Sequence record: NC_129898.1
DNA length: 64,000 nt
Direction: 5' to 3' (one strand)
Source: a phage
The notes below the pieces were generated by a model that saw only the letters and a program-made list of their open reading frames with translations, made no database searches and was not told the origin of the DNA. The translations under genes were made by a program, and so were the position numbers. Shown here piece after piece: positions 718 through 7,709 of the stretch (the stretch's first letter is position 1; each line of letters starts with the position of its first letter).

Positions 718-1247
718 TTCAAGTCTGCCTCTGGTGGTGCCAACCACATAAATGGCGGCAAGTCTAGACGGTTTTTCTTGTCCCATACAAAATATGCATA
801 TGCCTGCCCATCCGTTCTACCATTGGATTGGAATGACGGACGCTTAGATATTGTGATCACAGTGGTAGGTGCATTATCAAGCCACCATTCAAATCTGGCC
901 TTGCTTTCCAGAAAATTAAGACGCAAAAGCATAATAACTACATCGGCATCTTTCAACGCCTTGTCTACAAACTCACGAGCCAAGCTGTACGGTGGGTTGG
1001 TGATAATACAGTCAACATGGTTGTATTCTGTATTCAGATAGTCAACACCTTCTTGGATTTCTCCCCATGCAGATCCTAACGGCATACGGGAGTAGAACAC
1101 ACCTGAGGCACTATTCCTGCAAGGCTCTAAGTAAGTCCAGTCTTCTGGGAACGGAATAAGGTCATACAGCCCTTCTGCACACCACTCCGGTGTCACATAC
1201 TCATCGTAAGCGTTACGTTGTTCATCAGGTTTTCTAGCACAAGTCAT
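714..1247 (-). CDS. DNA methyltransferase (N6-adenine/N4-cytosine class, NPPY motif)
   Basis: Motif IV 'DCIITNPPYS' typical of amino-methyltransferases; no cognate restriction enzyme nearby. Confidence 0.65.
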   Translation of the reverse strand: MTCARKPDEQRNAYDEYVTPEWCAEGLYDLIPFPEDWTYLEPCRNSASGVFYSRMPLGSAWGEIQEGVDYLNTEYNHVDCIITNPPYSLAREFVDKALKDADVVIMLLRLNFLESKARFEWWLDNAPTTVITISKRPSFQSNGRTDGQAYAYFVWDKKNRLDLPPFMWLAPPEADLK

Positions 1248-1298: not shown

Positions 1299-2348
1299 TT
1301 AAGCTTCTTCGACAATTCCTGCGCCCAGGATTTTTTCATTGAGCTCTTTTGCTGTTTTAATAATATTGTCCACCAGACGCTTACGAGTCTTATCTTTCAC
1401 CTGAACTTCTTCTCCGCCGTTCAGGGTGGTTTTCAATTGGGACAAAATGTCCTGAAGCTCTACCACAGAGAATCGCTGCAGATCTTCCGAGGTAATCTCA
1501 CCCAGTGCAATCTTAACGGTCTCACCACTCTCCATCTGCAGATTCAGGAACACAGTGTGAACATCACCTTTCATACCATTTTCTTTTGCAGACTCAACAG
1601 CATGAACCAGCTCGTCCAAAGATGTGCATTGGTGAATCTCTGGCAGGCCTGCTTCGCCTAGCACACCTTCTTCATCACTTTTTGCCAAAAGCTTTTTCGG
1701 TTTCTGTCCATTCTGAATGCGCTGAATGTTTTCATCGTCCAGAATAATAGCACCAGTTCGAGATGCCAGCTCTTCTCCATCTAACCACACTTCGCCGCCA
1801 GCTGTGATGGATGCGATCTCATCTTCTGTTAGCACTCCACCGTAGTATTTTTCGATCAGGCGTTCAAAACGTTTCTTCCAGTAGTTGACCTGGGTATTCA
1901 TGTTCACACCGTTACCATAGGTGCCACCTTGATAATAGTGGAACATAAATTCTGTGTCCGGAGCCACAGTTCGTTCTTTGCAACCCATCCATAAGATTGT
2001 TCCTGCTGAACAGCACATCCCTTCAGCGTGTACAACAACGCTTGCCTGAGACTCGCGGAATGCCTGCAAATACGCCATAGCAATGTGAACGCAACCACCA
2101 GGGCTGTTAATGATTACACGGATACTTTCTTCTGGCTGAGCCATACGAATCGTCTGTAGACGAGACATATGATCTTGCAGGTCGTCCAAATCGTCAATAT
2201 AAAGAACGTGGTCAACAACAGGTGTTGGGTAGCTGTATGTTTCCATAATACCACCCGGCATACCAAACATTTTGTTACTCATAGGTTCGAAACCGTTCTG
2301 TTTTTCTTTCATGCCGTGTACCATGGTGCTGCGAGGTGTTAAATTCAT
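1299..2348 (-). CDS. ClpP/S49-like serine protease with C-terminal extension
   Basis: 'IINSPGGCV' ClpP-type motif and 'MCCSAGT' serine region; about 120 extra C-terminal residues. Confidence 0.65.
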   Translation of the reverse strand: MNLTPRSTMVHGMKEKQNGFEPMSNKMFGMPGGIMETYSYPTPVVDHVLYIDDLDDLQDHMSRLQTIRMAQPEESIRVIINSPGGCVHIAMAYLQAFRESQASVVVHAEGMCCSAGTILWMGCKERTVAPDTEFMFHYYQGGTYGNGVNMNTQVNYWKKRFERLIEKYYGGVLTEDEIASITAGGEVWLDGEELASRTGAIILDDENIQRIQNGQKPKKLLAKSDEEGVLGEAGLPEIHQCTSLDELVHAVESAKENGMKGDVHTVFLNLQMESGETVKIALGEITSEDLQRFSVVELQDILSQLKTTLNGGEEVQVKDKTRKRLVDNIIKTAKELNEKILGAGIVEEA

Positions 2349-2408
2349 GAGAAATCCTTAATATTGGAAGTTGAAAGCTATTTATTTAAACCTGATTCAC
2401 ATTTACCT

Positions 2409-2720
2409 TTATTTAGCAATCACTATAGAATACTTACGATTGTCAGAAGCATCACAGCTCAATGATTGCCAGTCTACCACATACCACGTATCATTGTCAA
2501 CAATTACTTTATCGCCTGTTCTGTAGCAGGTGCTGCTTTCAATAATCCTAGACTCGATAAAGAATCTGTGTCGGCGCTCACGTAGCAACGCTAAGTTGAT
2601 TATATTACCACCACTGTCCTTGGTCCACACATTCTTGGATCCTTTATTTGCCAAAATTGTCTCGCCGTTATATACAAACAGGCAGTATATTTTATTCAGT
2701 CTCTCTTGTATTGTAGCCAT
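2409..2720 (-). CDS. hypothetical protein
   Basis: Track ORF trimmed to the ATG at 2720 (AAGGAG RBS upstream); the track start at 2768 lies upstream of a predicted promoter. Confidence 0.4.
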   Translation of the reverse strand: MATIQERLNKIYCLFVYNGETILANKGSKNVWTKDSGGNIINLALLRERRHRFFIESRIIESSTCYRTGDKVIVDNDTWYVVDWQSLSCDASDNRKYSIVIAK

Positions 2721-2750
2721 ACTGTGTCCTTCTCCTTGTTTTGTCCAGTA

Positions 2751-2779
2751 ATAATATCTAAAGCTCACCTGTTTGTCAA
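2751..2779 (-). promoter_or_regulatory. sigma70-like promoter on the minus strand (TTGACA-17-TATTAT)
   Basis: Read on the reverse complement; downstream of a terminator-like hairpin at 2786-2815. Confidence 0.4.
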
Positions 2780-2823
2780 CAACTGTTTTAGATATTTAAG
2801 GGTGGAATAACCACCCTTCTGTA

Positions 2824-3612
2824 TTACTCGGAAACAGGAGTCCAAATATGATTTGCACGATCCTCAATAAGATTGAGTGCAATCTGACGGCCTAACCCGG
2901 AACGAACGACATCGTCTGGACTATCAAAGCTAATCATTCCAACCTCAGGATCTGGATGACGCGTAAAGAAATCTGTCACCCATGCAAGGCCAGATTTACC
3001 AGGGATGTCACGTTGGCTGTTATCGCCCATAATTACAAGGGTGGCCTGATCAGAGATCCTTGTGATAATTGACAACATTTCTTCAGGATTGGTTTGCTGT
3101 GCTTCATCAATAAGGACAAAGCATCGTTCATCAAAACTACGACCACGAATGCTTTCAACCTCACAAATCTCGATACGGCTGTTCTGACCGTCTCCAAGCA
3201 TTGCTGCAAAAGCACCTTTGCCAACACGACGACAAATCGTGTCCATCATGCTTCTAAGATAGGGCCACAGTTTCTGCATTGCATTTCCAGGTTTAAATCC
3301 TGAAGTCTTTCCTGTCTGAACGTAAGGGCGTGCAACAATGATCTTATCAATCTCGTTCTTGCGCAGAAGATCCCCTGCATATGCAGATGCCATGAATGTC
3401 TTACCGGATCCAAACACACCGTTTACAATGATAATCTTACGCGACCCTAGATAATCAAGATACTTTTGCTGCTTTTTATTCATTGGTCGGAGAGCTGGAG
3501 CGGTGTGCTCTCGTTCGTCAGCAAATTTTTCAGCAGCCTTACGCAGGCGATCAGATTTGCGAGCCTCTCTAGCTTCATCACGCATGCGTTTTGTTTCTTT
3601 AGCTCGACCCAT
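2824..3612 (-). CDS. phoH: PhoH-like ATPase
   Basis: Walker A 'GVFGSGKT', Walker B 'VLIDEAQ' and PhoH-typical C-terminal region. Confidence 0.85.
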   Translation of the reverse strand: MGRAKETKRMRDEAREARKSDRLRKAAEKFADEREHTAPALRPMNKKQQKYLDYLGSRKIIIVNGVFGSGKTFMASAYAGDLLRKNEIDKIIVARPYVQTGKTSGFKPGNAMQKLWPYLRSMMDTICRRVGKGAFAAMLGDGQNSRIEICEVESIRGRSFDERCFVLIDEAQQTNPEEMLSIITRISDQATLVIMGDNSQRDIPGKSGLAWVTDFFTRHPDPEVGMISFDSPDDVVRSGLGRQIALNLIEDRANHIWTPVSE

Positions 3613-3650: not shown

Positions 3651-4001
3651 TTACTGCAATAGTTTTTCAATAGCCGCTTCCATGCTGCTTGCAACAGCCT
3701 GAACTCGGATATTCATCTCTTCTTGGTGGATCAGCTCCTTAAGCTCTTTAATGGTAAATTCTTTAGAGAAACCTTCTACCATAATCTTGTGTAAGGCTTC
3801 TTGCGTGTCTACCTGCAAGAACTTTTCCAGTTTGTTGGCAGAGGCTTCTAAATCAGCCCGAATACGAGGGTCATCTGTGCGATTCAGCATCAGGCGTAAG
3901 CCATCAAGATTAGTAGAAATAGCGTCTGCATGTTGAGTAACTAATCGTGGCAAAATGAGATCTACAAACTTATTAGCCAAATCGATACGTTCTTGTGTCA
4001 C
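3651..4001 (-). CDS. hypothetical protein
   Basis: 116-aa ORF starting at GTG; its start overlaps the stop of the small upstream ORF. Confidence 0.45.
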   Translation of the reverse strand: MTQERIDLANKFVDLILPRLVTQHADAISTNLDGLRLMLNRTDDPRIRADLEASANKLEKFLQVDTQEALHKIMVEGFSKEFTIKELKELIHQEEMNIRVQAVASSMEAAIEKLLQ

Positions 4002-4111
4002 TGTTGCACCCCCTCTTCATCCTCATGATGTTTCTTTTCACGCTTGTGTTTTTTCTTAAGCTCAAGCGCAATCTCTTTTTTGTACGCCTTCTTCAAGGCC
4101 TTTTTAGCCAT
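3998..4111 (-). CDS. small lysine-rich basic protein (37 aa)
   Basis: Own translation MAKKALKKAYKKEIALELKKKHKREKKHHEDEEGVQQ; strong RBS (AGAGGAGGTG) and promoter-like TTGACA-18-TATAAT just upstream; below the track size cut-off. Confidence 0.3.
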   Translation of the reverse strand: MAKKALKKAYKKEIALELKKKHKREKKHHEDEEGVQQ

Positions 4112-4140
4112 TTGGCACCTCCTCTGCTTTCATTACGCTA

Positions 4141-4170
4141 ATTATAACCAACTTAACAAGACTTTGTCAA
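4141..4170 (-). promoter_or_regulatory. sigma70-like promoter on the minus strand (TTGACA-18-TATAAT)
   Basis: Read on the reverse complement, upstream of the small basic ORF. Confidence 0.4.
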
Positions 4171-4173
4171 CAA

Positions 4174-4647
4174 TTAGTCAACCTGAACCCAACCGCCTGC
4201 TACCTTTTTAAACATTCTTTGGTTATCACTGCCTCGGAATGGTTTCTTGGTTGGTAAATCTTTTACATACTTTCCATCAATGACGATATCAGCCAGTTTA
4301 AGAACATCACTAGAGATATGCTCAAATGTGAACCCAGTATACACAAGAATAGTTTTCTTGTCACCAAACTTTTCCTTAATTCTCCTCATAAGGTTGATAA
4401 TATCTGGCTCATTATAAGTAGCCAAAGGCTCTCCACCAAGTAAAGAAATACCGCATACAGATTCATTGTCTAAATCCAACAAAATTTTCTGCAAATCTTC
4501 TTCGGTGAACTCTCTTCCTTTATCTTTTGACCAAAATGCTTGATTAAAGCAACTGGGACAAGCGTGTGGGCACCCAGATACCCACAAAGCTGTCCTAATA
4601 CCTGGCCCCTCGGTGTAAGATATCTCTGTATACCCGACAATATTCAT
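4174..4647 (-). CDS. nrdG: anaerobic ribonucleotide reductase activating protein (radical SAM)
   Basis: 'GCPHACPSC' CxxxCxxC cluster; N-terminus aligns with NrdG when started at the ATG at 4647 rather than the track start at 4665. Confidence 0.8.
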   Translation of the reverse strand: MNIVGYTEISYTEGPGIRTALWVSGCPHACPSCFNQAFWSKDKGREFTEEDLQKILLDLDNESVCGISLLGGEPLATYNEPDIINLMRRIKEKFGDKKTILVYTGFTFEHISSDVLKLADIVIDGKYVKDLPTKKPFRGSDNQRMFKKVAGGWVQVD

Positions 4648-4760
4648 ACATACTCCGCATCGCATTTAGGACAATGCCAAATAAAATCGTCCAGTGCCTT
4701 ACACCAACGAAGATTGCAATGACAACCACACTTGCAAATTTTATAAATACCTGTAGACAT
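4644..4760 (-). CDS. small cysteine-rich (zinc-ribbon-like) protein, 38 aa
   Basis: Own translation MSTGIYKICKCGCHCNLRWCKALDDFIWHCPKCDAEYV; AGGAGGTG RBS; stop overlaps the nrdG ATG (ATGA); not in the track. Confidence 0.35.
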   Translation of the reverse strand: MSTGIYKICKCGCHCNLRWCKALDDFIWHCPKCDAEYV

Positions 4761-4823
4761 GCTGCACCTCCTAGTTTACTGTGTGACAACAATATGCAAC
4801 ATCCTTGTGACTTTTGTCAAGTA

Positions 4824-5786
4824 TCAGCAACCACAACTTCCGTAGTGCTTAACCCGTTCTATAACCTCCGCTTGCTTACCTTTATTGTAAGGACGGGAGT
4901 TTGGACTGGACAGATACCCGGATACACGTCTAATCACACTGATCGTTCCCTCTTCATGGTTTCCACACTCTGGGCATACAAAGCCTTTAGCTGTTGCACT
5001 GAACTCACCAGAGAATCCACACTTAAGACATTTATCCACAGGCTGGTTAATACCAAAATACATAATGTGTTTATATCCGAAATCAACAAGAGCTTCCAAA
5101 GCATCTAAGTTGTTTTTCAGATTTGGTGTCTCTATGTACCCAATGTTGCCACCAGAGGAGATCATAGCAAAACCTTCCTCATACTTCCACTTATCAAAAG
5201 GCGAGCTATTGATCCATACTGGCTGATGGAAACTGTTGGTGAGGTATTCATGCTCGTGCTTCAACACTTCTGGGTATTCACGATCCAGACAGGTTGCAGC
5301 TTTATAGCATAAACTCTCAGAAGGTGTGCCGTACAAGCTAAATGCTAGTCCACTTTCCTTCTTGTATCGCTCACAAGCATCTTTCATGTGCTGAAGGATT
5401 CCAAGAGCTAAAGCCTTGTCACCCTCTCTGCCCAAAATCTGACAGGTTTCATACACACCAATATACCCAATACTGATGGAAGCGTACCCGTCATAGAAGA
5501 GTTTATCGATACTCTCTTCAGGATCCAGGCTAGCAAGAGCTCCTTCACACCACATGATAGGGTTATGCCCTGCCTTTGTTCCTTTTAGACGGTTAACTCT
5601 TACAAGGTGAGCCTCATATGCCAAATCCAAATATTCGTCAAGAACTGCAAAGAAATCAACACCTTCCGTTTTAGCTTTTGCCGCAATCATTGGTAGGTTA
5701 AGGCTAACAACACCCAAGTTGAATCTGCCAAGGTATTTCTCCTCGCCTGTTACAGGGTCGCTATATTTCGATAAGAAACTTCTACA
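4824..5786 (-). CDS. nrdD: anaerobic ribonucleotide reductase, exon 2 (C-terminal part)
   Basis: Begins 'CRSFLS'; C-terminal zinc ribbon CLKC...CPEC and glycyl-radical motif 'RVSGYL'; in frame with exon 1 after removing 5787-6548. Confidence 0.7.
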   Translation of the reverse strand, partial: CRSFLSKYSDPVTGEEKYLGRFNLGVVSLNLPMIAAKAKTEGVDFFAVLDEYLDLAYEAHLVRVNRLKGTKAGHNPIMWCEGALASLDPEESIDKLFYDGYASISIGYIGVYETCQILGREGDKALALGILQHMKDACERYKKESGLAFSLYGTPSESLCYKAATCLDREYPEVLKHEHEYLTNSFHQPVWINSSPFDKWKYEEGFAMISSGGNIGYIETPNLKNNLDALEALVDFGYKHIMYFGINQPVDKCLKCGFSGEFSATAKGFVCPECGNHEEGTISVIRRVSGYLSSPNSRPYNKGKQAEVIERVKHYGSCGC

Positions 5787-6548
5787 CATTATGTTCAAGG
5801 TGGTTCGCAAGGCCACCCCCGCACCATTACGTGCTGCTGCATGTCCCCATGCAGATCAGACTATATCTTCACACTTAGTGTGTCTACCATTTCGAGTGTC
5901 ATCAGCTTACACCCTACACCGCTACATTCATCACGGTTAGTCGTTAGGCATTTCGTAACAGAACTCGTAATCATAGTTATTAGGTGCACCACGTTTCAGG
6001 ATAGCAGATATTCTTTTTCTATCTATTCCTAAAACATCAGCACAACATCTCAGACTCTTAAAGTGAATAACCACACCAGTTAATTTGTGGGTGGCTTTCA
6101 CCCCGTGACATCTTGTGTAAAAAGCATAACAGTTGTTGTCGTATCCTTCTTGAGTATTGTCTGGGCAAGCTCCCCACTCAAGGTTGTATACGCTGTTATC
6201 TTTCCTGTTGTCACCTTTGTGCTTAACATATGGTAAATTGTCTGGATTTGGTAAAAACGCTTCAGCAACAAGTCTGTGAACCCTTAGGCAAACAGTCTTT
6301 TTGTTCTTGCGTATCCTGACAAGACGGTAACCTGTGTTTATCTCTTCCCACGAATGAATAATTCTTTCATTTTCGTATCGGGTGCAATAAACATTGCCCA
6401 TCTCGTCAATTTCATAACCTTCAAAATCACGAATTTGTTTTCTCATTTCAGGACTCCTCTTAGTCAGGAGTTCTGTTACGTTTAGCACGGGATTGTCCGT
6501 TCTGGAGTTTCCCCGTTTAGATAGATTTTACATGAGCAGTTATAGTTT
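5787..6548 (-). mobile_element. group I intron in nrdD carrying an HNH homing endonuclease ORF
   Basis: Exon 1 ends in U (..AUGGGU) with a complementary guide 'GCUCAU' 11 nt into the insert; 'AAGAUAUAGUCU' resembles the group I core S element; hairpin CUGCAUG-GGGA-CAUGCAG; insert ends in G; splicing joins SMG to CRSFL in frame. Confidence 0.6.
5937..6446 (-). CDS. HNH homing endonuclease (intron-encoded)
   Basis: HNH-type region 'VHRLVAEAF...HKGDNRKDNSVYNLEW'; AAGAGGAG RBS before the ATG at 6446. Confidence 0.75.
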   Translation of the reverse strand: MRKQIRDFEGYEIDEMGNVYCTRYENERIIHSWEEINTGYRLVRIRKNKKTVCLRVHRLVAEAFLPNPDNLPYVKHKGDNRKDNSVYNLEWGACPDNTQEGYDNNCYAFYTRCHGVKATHKLTGVVIHFKSLRCCADVLGIDRKRISAILKRGAPNNYDYEFCYEMPND

Positions 6549-7709
6549 ACCCATGCTTGTTACTTTGCCGTCTGTTGAACCTGTCACTTTACGATTTAGT
6601 GGAACAGAAACAAAGTCAGGATAAATCCGCTCTGCAGAGCATTCTAGAGCCAATCGTTTCAAATCGTAGTTAGGATCCCCAGGGTTCATGTTGACACCCT
6701 CCTCTAAGAAGAACAGCACTTTAGGAAACACAGGGGTGATCCGTTCTTCACCAAGACCCATTTTGTGGACTTTCAAGTAGTTTTTGGTAATCATTCTACC
6801 AAAGACCGAGGTATCCAGTCCTAAACTTAATGTGATGAATGGAGTTTGCCCGTTGACAGAAGTTAACGTATTGATTTGGTAGAGCAAAGTTTGCATACTA
6901 TCAAACACGTCTTTATCTGTCATTTGCATTGCAACAGTCTCAGCATCTGGCAACCAATGCTCCTGACAAAATTTAAGGTTCTTCTCATAGGTTGCTTCAG
7001 CATACTGTGCCAGATAATGATCAATATGGCTCATGGTTTGACCACCATATTGAGCACTAGCTACTGCACTAGAGATTTGGCTAAGGATTGTTGTTGCAAC
7101 CCCTATTGACTTCGGCTTACTGACATGGGCGTTGCCAATGTTGAATCCGTTTTCCAGCATATCCGGATAATTTACCAAACAACAGTTTGTTAACGGACTG
7201 ATCAGGTAGTCAAGATCATGCACATGGATGAAGCCTTTGTTGTGCTCTTCGGAGACACGGTCTGGCAGGATCTGTGTTGATGCAAGATGTTTGCTAAGGA
7301 TGCCTGCAAGCAGGTCACGATGAGTGTGTACATGATTAGTAGGCTTATTTGCGTTTTCTTTTGTAAATTCATCACAAGTACGATCCAAGAAGCCACTAAT
7401 ATCTGCAAGCAGTTTTCCACCTGCCTCTCTGTTATTATCTCTTGTCTGTCTATACTGGATGTATTCTCTGGCTGCACATTTTAAACCCATATCCATAAGA
7501 GCATCTTCAACAAGGATATGGATATTTTTTACAGAGATCGTGCACTGGTCGGTTGGCAGATTGTTGGCAACAACTTCATTAACCGCACAGGCAATCCGGT
7601 AAGCTTCTTCTTCAGTATGTCCAGACTCAAGTAAGGCGGACTCTGCCGCCTTGATCACCTTAATTCCGTTATAAAACTCTTCTCTACCGTCCCGTTTTAC
7701 AACTTTCAC
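6549..7709 (-). CDS. nrdD: anaerobic ribonucleotide reductase, exon 1 (N-terminal part with ATP cone)
   Basis: ATP-cone-like N-terminus (VKRDGREEF...); the track ORF continues 3 codons into the intron before a stop. Confidence 0.7.

Follow-up and report, generated by a model that had tools for sequence, protein, structure and literature searches.

The window, a 64,000-nucleotide stretch of phage DNA (sequence record NC_129898.1), derives from a Vequintavirus, that is, an rV5/FV3-like E. coli myophage, and across region 4100–4900 it has 98.6% identity with phage EPFV3-03/2025 and 97.6% with FV3. The genes of the neighborhood are encoded on the minus strand in the order nrdB, glutaredoxin, nrdD, a small ORF, nrdG, two small ORFs, phoH, and clpP, and the nrdD gene of the window is interrupted by an insert with an HNH endonuclease ORF. 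From upstream to downstream, the nrdD–nrdG junction contains the following features.

4824..5816, minus strand: 3' part of nrdD, encoding the glycyl-radical domain and NrdD's own CxxC…CxxC zinc ribbon (Pfam: NRDD, Gly_radical); 63 nt upstream of the small ORF
4820..4791, minus strand: match to a sigma-70-like promoter, TTGACA-18-CATATT, in the interval from the nrdD stop to the small ORF (consensus scan, 10/12)
4772..4765, minus strand: Shine-Dalgarno sequence of the small ORF, AGGAGGTG, read from the sequence; a 4-nt spacer, CAGC, separates it from the ATG at 4760..4758
4644..4760, minus strand: small CDS encoding a Cys7 mini-protein, a member of PHROG phrog_20137 (ORF listing, PHROG match, pN/pS, invariant cysteines)
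4663..4665, minus strand: in-frame upstream ATG, non-conserved, the nrdG start in the FV3 RefSeq annotation (locus comparison)
4653..4656, minus strand: GGAG within codons Ala35-Glu36 of the small ORF, which ends 5 nt short of the nrdG ATG and may serve nrdG as an internal Shine-Dalgarno sequence (from the sequence)
4644..4647, minus strand: ATGA stop/start overlap of the small-ORF TGA (4646..4644) and the nrdG ATG (4647..4645) (from the sequence)
4174..4647, minus strand: nrdG, encoding the class III RNR activase of 157 aa that starts with MNIVGY (TIGR02491, PHROG 626)

The small ORF consists of 38 codons followed by TGA, begins with ATG, and encodes MSTGIYKICKCGCHCNLRWCKALDDFIWHCPKCDAEYV (38 aa), in which the seven cysteines occupy positions 9, 11, 13, 15, 20, 30, and 33. 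The ORF listing confirms the ORF, the exact peptide, and the seven cysteines given in a preliminary description of this DNA, and the strong ribosome-binding site reported there corresponds to the Shine-Dalgarno sequence 4 nt upstream of the ATG. AGGAGG is kept at this site in Vequintavirus relatives, with ATGAGG in one; in distant relatives the site is also rich in purines but of different sequence (AAGGAG, CAGGAG, and AAGAGGTG). The translational coupling to nrdG proposed in the same description stands as well, the TGA and ATG overlapping as ATGA in the window and likewise in L001–L006, L010–L015, and L024 among the homologous loci. GCGGAGTA is conserved even where nrdG does not come next (rV5 and L016), so the peptide also constrains the GGAG site. 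The promoter-like match at 4791..4820 contains a hairpin-forming repeat in its spacer; its hexamers are conserved within the genus and not in L005, L012, and L016, and the distant relatives differ in sequence there. We can only infer that this match may function as a promoter.

The 157-aa form of NrdG scores 148.8 bits against TIGR02491 (curated cut-off 126.1), with residues 3–147 aligned to profile positions 2–152 of 154, and position 1 of the PHROG 626 profile is the Met of MNIVGY. The alternative start that the preliminary description had weighed, the upstream ATG at 4665, is present only in FV3-type loci and L010. It is missing or closed off by a stop in L002, L005, L006, L011, and L012–L015; these eight loci have a stop four codons ahead of MNI and no start codon in the interval. 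These alignments indicate that MNIVGY is the true start of nrdG, as the preliminary description had assumed, and that the nrdG start in FV3-type records should be moved there.

The small ORF matches phrog_20137 over its entire length (E = 6.3e-30, 103.9 bits, residues 1–38 on profile positions 1–38 of 38), a family that includes XRA40531.1 (EPFV3-03/2025), YP_008530353.1 (JES2013), and UniProt A0A9E7SGM6 (phage A51.2). FV3-type phages carry 100% identical copies at the same site between nrdD and nrdG, with no structural difference. In BFVD/UniProt, the 38-aa "uncharacterized protein" of phage A51.2 is 81% identical to a 41-aa homologue. The family is already in GenBank, UniProt, and PHROGs and so is not new; the ORF had been called unannotated, which is correct for the ORF track that accompanied the preliminary description and incorrect for many public records. 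Many GenBank entries annotate it as a 117-nt "hypothetical protein," with nrdG starting from the overlapping ATG. Some RefSeq records give it the product name "ribonucleotide reductase," a name that no similarity to RNR proteins supports and that looks copied from the neighboring gene. The FV3 RefSeq record omits the small ORF and gives nrdG in a longer, 492-nt form.

The distribution of the small ORF is narrow. About 120 of 50,697 phage records carry it, all of them in Vequintavirus and one sister clade, compared with 2240 phage records that contain NrdG homologues, and in these ~120 myophage genomes it always lies between nrdD and nrdG. A scan of 185,579 species genomes of bacteria and archaea yielded no homologue. 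An exhaustive phmmer search of 1.84 billion representative proteins gave five matches, only three of which are true clusters; the other two (P0004 and P0007) are repeat or low-complexity artefacts. A homologue search using the peptide padded by two upstream codons found only three close clusters, and a metagenome scan found only further Vequintavirus copies and one spurious match in high-GC bacterial sequence (L030). The small ORF has no meaningful match in Pfam and no family in NCBIfam, where L37ae is matched at E = 1.8, and the literature on Vequintavirus transcriptomics, on nrdD/nrdG and "zinc ribbon," on rV5, and on ZifS contained nothing bearing on it. The Vequintavirus-specific GSCGC tail at the C-terminus of NrdD was considered as a co-occurring partner feature and rejected, L012 and L016 carrying the ORF with an NrdD that lacks the tail.

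The question of whether the reading frame is conserved in homologous regions, raised in the preliminary description, can be answered using loci gathered from GenBank phages, IMG/VR, metagenomes, and Logan assemblies. The small ORF is intact in 22 of the 24 loci fetched. Over its 27-codon core, pN/pS calculated by the Nei-Gojobori method is 0.05–0.32 in every pair and 0.13 when summed over all pairs (289 synonymous vs 166 non-synonymous differences); between the window and L012 alone, there are 12 synonymous differences in 14.5 sites and 4 non-synonymous differences in 66.5 sites (Fisher p = 8e-9). Variable columns are distributed over codon positions 1, 2, and 3 as 10, 4, and 18, and indels are of whole codons and located in the N-terminal part; the family members are 36–54 aa long. 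In an alignment of 10 homologues, all seven cysteines are invariant, as are NLRW, LDD, I27, W28, P31, E36, and Y37, for a total of 22 invariant columns of 38; His14 and His29 vary. The constraint is also seen in comparisons with the distant relatives L012, L016, and L024, which are contigs of 130–140 kb whose PhoH proteins are ~51% identical and for which pS is ~0.8. Against these genus-level relatives, the small ORF is the best-conserved protein of the neighborhood, with a pN of 0.06–0.11 as compared with 0.12–0.16 for NrdD, 0.32–0.38 for NrdG, and 0.33 for PhoH. This substitution pattern indicates that the small ORF is a genuine protein-coding gene of Vequintavirus-like E. coli myophages and that the peptide itself is the selected product. 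Three copies are lesioned, by a TGA at Cys9 in phage nimi, by a C-terminal frameshift in phage Alma, and by a deletion that fuses codon 20 to an rV5-type ORF116 in contig L031, from which it follows that the small ORF is dispensable for propagation.

Structure prediction provides an indication of what the peptide may be. The AF2 model of the window peptide has four short strands and a pLDDT of 50, a quality too low for a fold search; the model of the 41-aa homologue, in which the first knuckle is the canonical CKHC, has a pLDDT of 74 and suggests a three-stranded sheet flanked by two cysteine knuckles. The best matches of the latter model in a Foldseek search of the PDB are all zinc ribbons (TMq 0.66–0.76, rmsd 0.9–1.3 Å), with E-values of at least 0.17 because the domain is tiny; they comprise Rpb9/C11 of RNA polymerases (TMq 0.70–0.76, rmsd ~1 Å), Thermus thermophilus ZifS, and a NUDIX N-terminal ribbon. 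The second knuckle of the small protein, CPKC (C30 and C33), is invariant; the first is C9-K-C11 (CxC) in the window and CKHC or CKDC (CxxC) in the 41- and 54-aa homologues, and the spacing between the two is 18 residues, within the range of about 15–20 expected of zinc ribbons. A sequence profile search of the PDB matched only the IWHCPKC knuckle of eL43, and hhalign against NrdD's own C-terminal zinc ribbon aligned only the 8-residue CPxC knuckle. Judging by the 41-aa model, the small protein would resemble the ribbons of Rpb9/C11/TFIIS, eL43/L37ae, and ZifS in its fold, and it has the IWHCPKC knuckle in common with eL43. Unlike them, it makes up a whole protein, is far shorter, conserves seven cysteines where they conserve four, and has a CxC knuckle in the window, and the sequence relation is not significant (E ≥ 0.16), which supports assignment to a fold class and not to a family. 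Lar-like restriction-alleviation proteins and other small phage zinc ribbons are weak fold and profile neighbors, tiny and phage-encoded like the small protein, and act by binding; this likeness is at the level of the fold only (E = 0.3), and nothing points to an anti-restriction role for the small protein. The zinc-ribbon-like cysteine pattern described earlier is supported, and we assign the small protein to a zinc-ribbon-like fold class; it most likely folds as a zinc ribbon and is predicted to bind zinc.

A copy of the small ORF is also found in a genome that is not that of a myophage. The SP6-like podophage vB_EcoP_ACG-C91 has an unannotated copy that is 74% identical, retains all seven cysteines, and matches phrog_20137 with E = 4.9e-23; neither NrdD nor NrdG was found in this genome by tblastn (E > 0.07) or in its annotation. 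The copy replaces, exactly from start codon to ATGA, a 38-aa CxxC…CxxC ORF that the other Vectreviruses have upstream of DNA ligase, and the flanks of the swapped ORF are otherwise 98% identical. The K1E/SP6-like Vectrevirus ORF that normally occupies the slot (WVW77647.1; weak match to phrog_13972) has the same size, zinc-ribbon-type cysteine pairs, and ATGA coupling. It differs from the small ORF in having four cysteines instead of seven and an acidic tail, and no homology between the two is detectable beyond one CPxC knuckle (hhalign probability 45%, 8 columns). The replacement is known from this single genome.

We hypothesize, with a probability of about 60%, that the small ORF encodes a portable zinc-ribbon mini-protein that binds a highly conserved partner and forms a module independent of nrdG rather than a cofactor of NrdG. 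The knuckles C9/C11 (CxxC in the longer variants) and C30-P-K-C33 would be the likely four metal ligands, leaving Cys13, Cys15, and Cys20 free to coordinate a second metal or to contact a partner. Given the strong Shine-Dalgarno sequence and the overlap of its stop with the nrdG start, ribosomes that complete the small ORF may re-initiate on nrdG; the protein so made would probably act through binding a highly conserved protein or nucleic acid, whether of host or phage origin. The independence from NrdG is suggested by the comparison of loci. As an object, the small ORF is ordinary, one more small uncharacterized and probable zinc-ribbon ORF of a lytic phage; its top conservation locally and its ORF-for-ORF transplant into an unrelated podophage make it a clean candidate for a phage micro-protein functional screen.

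The main rival, a reading that we consider unlikely, is that of an accessory metalloprotein of class III RNR, i.e., a mini rubredoxin or zinc ribbon that would serve NrdD or NrdG, for example by donating electrons to the [4Fe-4S] cluster of NrdG, by chaperoning metal, or by binding to the C-terminal domain of NrdD. This is essentially what the preliminary description had proposed from the position of the ORF, and if the small protein acts on NrdD it would be a new component of class III RNR biology. The invariable location between nrdD and nrdG in the myophages that carry the ORF fits this reading, as do presumed co-transcription and ATGA coupling with nrdG in most of them, a divergence that tracks that of NrdD and not that of NrdG across genus-level distances, and knuckles that resemble those of rubredoxin (CxxCG in the 41-aa homologue, and DD-aromatic-CPxC). 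A precedent exists in YfaE, a small [2Fe-2S] ferredoxin that is encoded in the E. coli nrdAB operon and serves class Ia NrdB; as the small protein would be, YfaE is a small cysteine-ligated metalloprotein inside an RNR operon, but it has an 84-aa plant-type ferredoxin fold with no sequence or fold relation to the small ORF, and it co-occurs broadly with its RNR partner, which the small ORF does not. The resemblance to rubredoxin is also limited, there being no match to PF00301 in Pfam at E ≤ 1 and only the knuckle, 9 columns, aligned by hhalign (probability 33%); the rubredoxin pattern CxxCG … CPxCG has its knuckles ~29 residues apart as compared with 18 in the small ORF.

The comparative evidence weakens the functional argument from position. 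The small ORF is missing from the other phage nrdDG operons that we examined: in Certrevirus phiTE, Justusliebigvirus PD06, and IMG/VR contig L007, nothing separates nrdD from nrdG, the two genes being directly adjacent or overlapping, and in a Felixounavirus unrelated genes lie between them. It has no cellular homologues, and it is present in ACG-C91, a phage without a class III RNR. The NrdG of the rV5 clade has had its first ~125 residues exchanged and is 52.2% identical overall; the small ORF that accompanies this allele still shows 89.5% identity, with 97–100% for NrdD and the downstream genes. Similarly, the small ORF of L012 is 87.5% identical and its NrdG 54.1% identical. Neither co-occurrence with nrdD and nrdG across lineages nor co-evolution with NrdG (rV5 and L012 identities) is therefore observed; both would be expected of a dedicated accessory factor of these enzymes. 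The host of ACG-C91 has its own NrdD. Given the constant position in the myophages and a divergence that follows NrdD, a link to class III RNR, above all to NrdD or host NrdD, keeps some probability. In a bolder version, which we regard as improbable, the small protein would be a metalloprotein invented by the phages as a partner for the catalytic subunit of class III RNR, acting on both phage and host NrdD; action on host NrdD would explain its usefulness in ACG-C91. Such a partner could, for example, carry single electrons in the manner of a rubredoxin or clamp the C-terminal domain of NrdD, with its glycyl radical and zinc ribbon, to tune activation or oxygen sensitivity. Class III RNR would thereby gain its first described small subunit with a dedicated accessory role.

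Returning to the portable, partner-binding zinc ribbon that we favor, its coupling to nrdG can be viewed in light of the other arrangements of the locus. In the rV5 clade, extra ORFs (ORF115 and ORF116) lie between the small ORF and nrdG and the small ORF ends in TAA; in L016, the small ORF also ends in TAA and nrdG does not follow directly. In turn, nrdG is ATGA-coupled to the upstream gene in every arrangement examined, whether this is the small ORF, nrdD (phiTE and PD06), ORF116 (rV5), or the fusion ORF of L031; the coupling is thus a feature of nrdG and not of the small ORF. This regularity could suggest that the small ORF is purely a translational-coupling device that delivers ribosomes to the nrdG start and whose peptide has no function, a view to which we give very little credence. 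The strong purifying selection on the peptide (the invariant cysteines, NLRW, LDD, and CPxC) is contrary to it, as is the ~90% identity that the ORF keeps in rV5 and L016 despite the absence of nrdG directly downstream; the pN/pS values largely refute this reading.

The conservation of the nucleotide sequence might instead be caused by something else that overlaps the small ORF, be it an ORF in a different frame (such as rV5 gp109) or on the opposite strand, or an element that acts as RNA or DNA, but we consider this scarcely credible. The rV5 RefSeq record does have gp109, a 75-aa ORF annotated across the small ORF in a different frame, and the hairpin and promoter-like site are located just upstream. 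However, stops interrupt the frame of gp109 in L004, L005, L011, L012, and L016, and gp109 is evidently an out-of-frame call; relatives have stops in both of the other sense frames and in two of the three antisense frames. The remaining antisense frame, whose wobble positions coincide with those of the sense frame, has no stop within the core in any relative, although its pN/pS is higher (0.23 vs 0.13 in the sense frame). An Rfam scan found no RNA family over the small ORF. The sense ORF agrees with the conservation of its ATG, Shine-Dalgarno sequence, and stop, with the insertion and deletion of whole codons, and with a transplant into ACG-C91 whose limits are exactly those of the ORF.

Finally, the presence of seven cysteines in 38 aa directly upstream of a radical-SAM gene could bring to mind a SCIFF/ranthipeptide-like RiPP precursor modified by the adjacent enzyme, which we judge to be extremely improbable given that no SCIFF model in NCBIfam matches at E ≤ 10, that the ORF persists in ACG-C91 without any radical-SAM gene, that its predicted fold is that of an ordinary zinc ribbon, and that the neighboring protein, at 157 aa, is a canonical NrdG equivalog that lacks SPASM and any other additional domain, its Pfam domains being Fer4_12 and Radical_SAM only.

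The nrdD gene is split into two ORFs in the window by an insert that bears an HNH endonuclease ORF:

6540..7709 and 4824..5816, minus strand: nrdD, two ORFs interrupted by the insert
5817..6539, minus strand: insert in nrdD
5937..6488, minus strand: HNH ORF of the insert
5837..6071, minus strand: sub-threshold match to Intron_gpI (Rfam; 32.9 bits, E=9e-6)

The nrdD genes of rV5 and JES2013 are insert-free, that of FV3 carries an insert at a different position from the window's, and that of L012, a distant relative of the window, contains two. This variation in the presence, position, and number of inserts among relatives marks nrdD as a hotspot of mobile introns and homing genes. In O157 typing phage 14 (L005), a 386-aa endonuclease-like ORF of the HNH type (1779..2939; phrog_681/559) separates nrdD from the small cysteine-rich ORF, which is present as a 41-aa CKHC variant with a differing upstream region.

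The stretch that separates the nrdD stop from the small ORF contains a hairpin (GCCACA-AGGA-TGTGGC) in L002, rV5 (L008), and other homologous loci. The distant relative L016 has GAGCACA-AGGA-TGTGCTC at about 3950..3970, in which base pairing is preserved with other bases, and the window has an imperfect copy:

about 4796..4811, minus strand: GTCACA…TGTTGC, within the spacer of the promoter-like site (TTGACA-18-CATATT)

This hairpin could be a terminator or, alternatively, a processing or stability element of the nrdD mRNA.

Members of the rV5 clade possess a different nrdG allele (regions L008 2633..3475, L016 4142..4789, and L031 652..1310). Compared with the window's protein, the N-terminal ~125 aa of rV5-clade NrdG are ~50% identical and the last ~30 aa are identical. 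Upstream of this allele lie ORF115 (35 aa, basic) and ORF116 (78 aa, phrog_3249), the latter of which is ATGA-coupled to nrdG in the rV5 clade. A deletion in contig L031 has joined codon 20 of the small ORF to the C-terminal half of ORF116.

The RefSeq annotation of rV5 (NC_011041) places a 75-aa ORF, rv5_gp109 (2436..2663), over the small ORF in another frame; this is probably a mis-call, because that frame contains stops in the homologous loci L004, L005, L011, L012, and L016. The FV3 RefSeq entry extends nrdG too far, to a non-conserved ATG. Two phages carry natural lesions in the small ORF itself: the Cys9 codon is changed from TGT to TGA in nimi (L011, MN850626; 2525..2527), and a frameshift near 2605 in Alma (L009) changes the last residues and lengthens the ORF to 61 aa. 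Either lesion could be genuine or could stem from a sequencing error.

Phage SHAK7163 (L017) encodes a distinct 38-aa zinc-ribbon ORF (899..1015; MTCPNCGSEETEHVVMSDTYHFYFCHSCDTTIEEEEAV) with DNA ligase ATGA-coupled downstream, and other K1E/SP6-like Vectreviruses have the same type of ORF before DNA ligase. The Vectrevirus ORF weakly matches phrog_13972, labelled "DNA ligase"; this label and "ribonucleotide reductase" for phrog_20137, the family of the small ORF, look like borrowings from the adjoining gene.

Eighteen GenBank records (MG0656xx) bear the name "Campylobacter phage", with C. jejuni given as the host. Over the small-ORF region they share ~90% identity with E. coli Vequintavirus, and they are probably mislabelled or contaminant genomes.

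Located 3' of nrdG is an ORF annotated as a hypothetical protein, with a promoter-like match ahead of it:

3998..4111, minus strand: 37-aa Lys-rich ORF (MAKKALKKAYKKEIALELKKKHKREKKHHEDEEGVQQ)
4170..4141, minus strand: perfect (12/12) sigma-70 consensus match

This Lys-rich ORF is 95-100% conserved within the genus and about 53% conserved in distant relatives.
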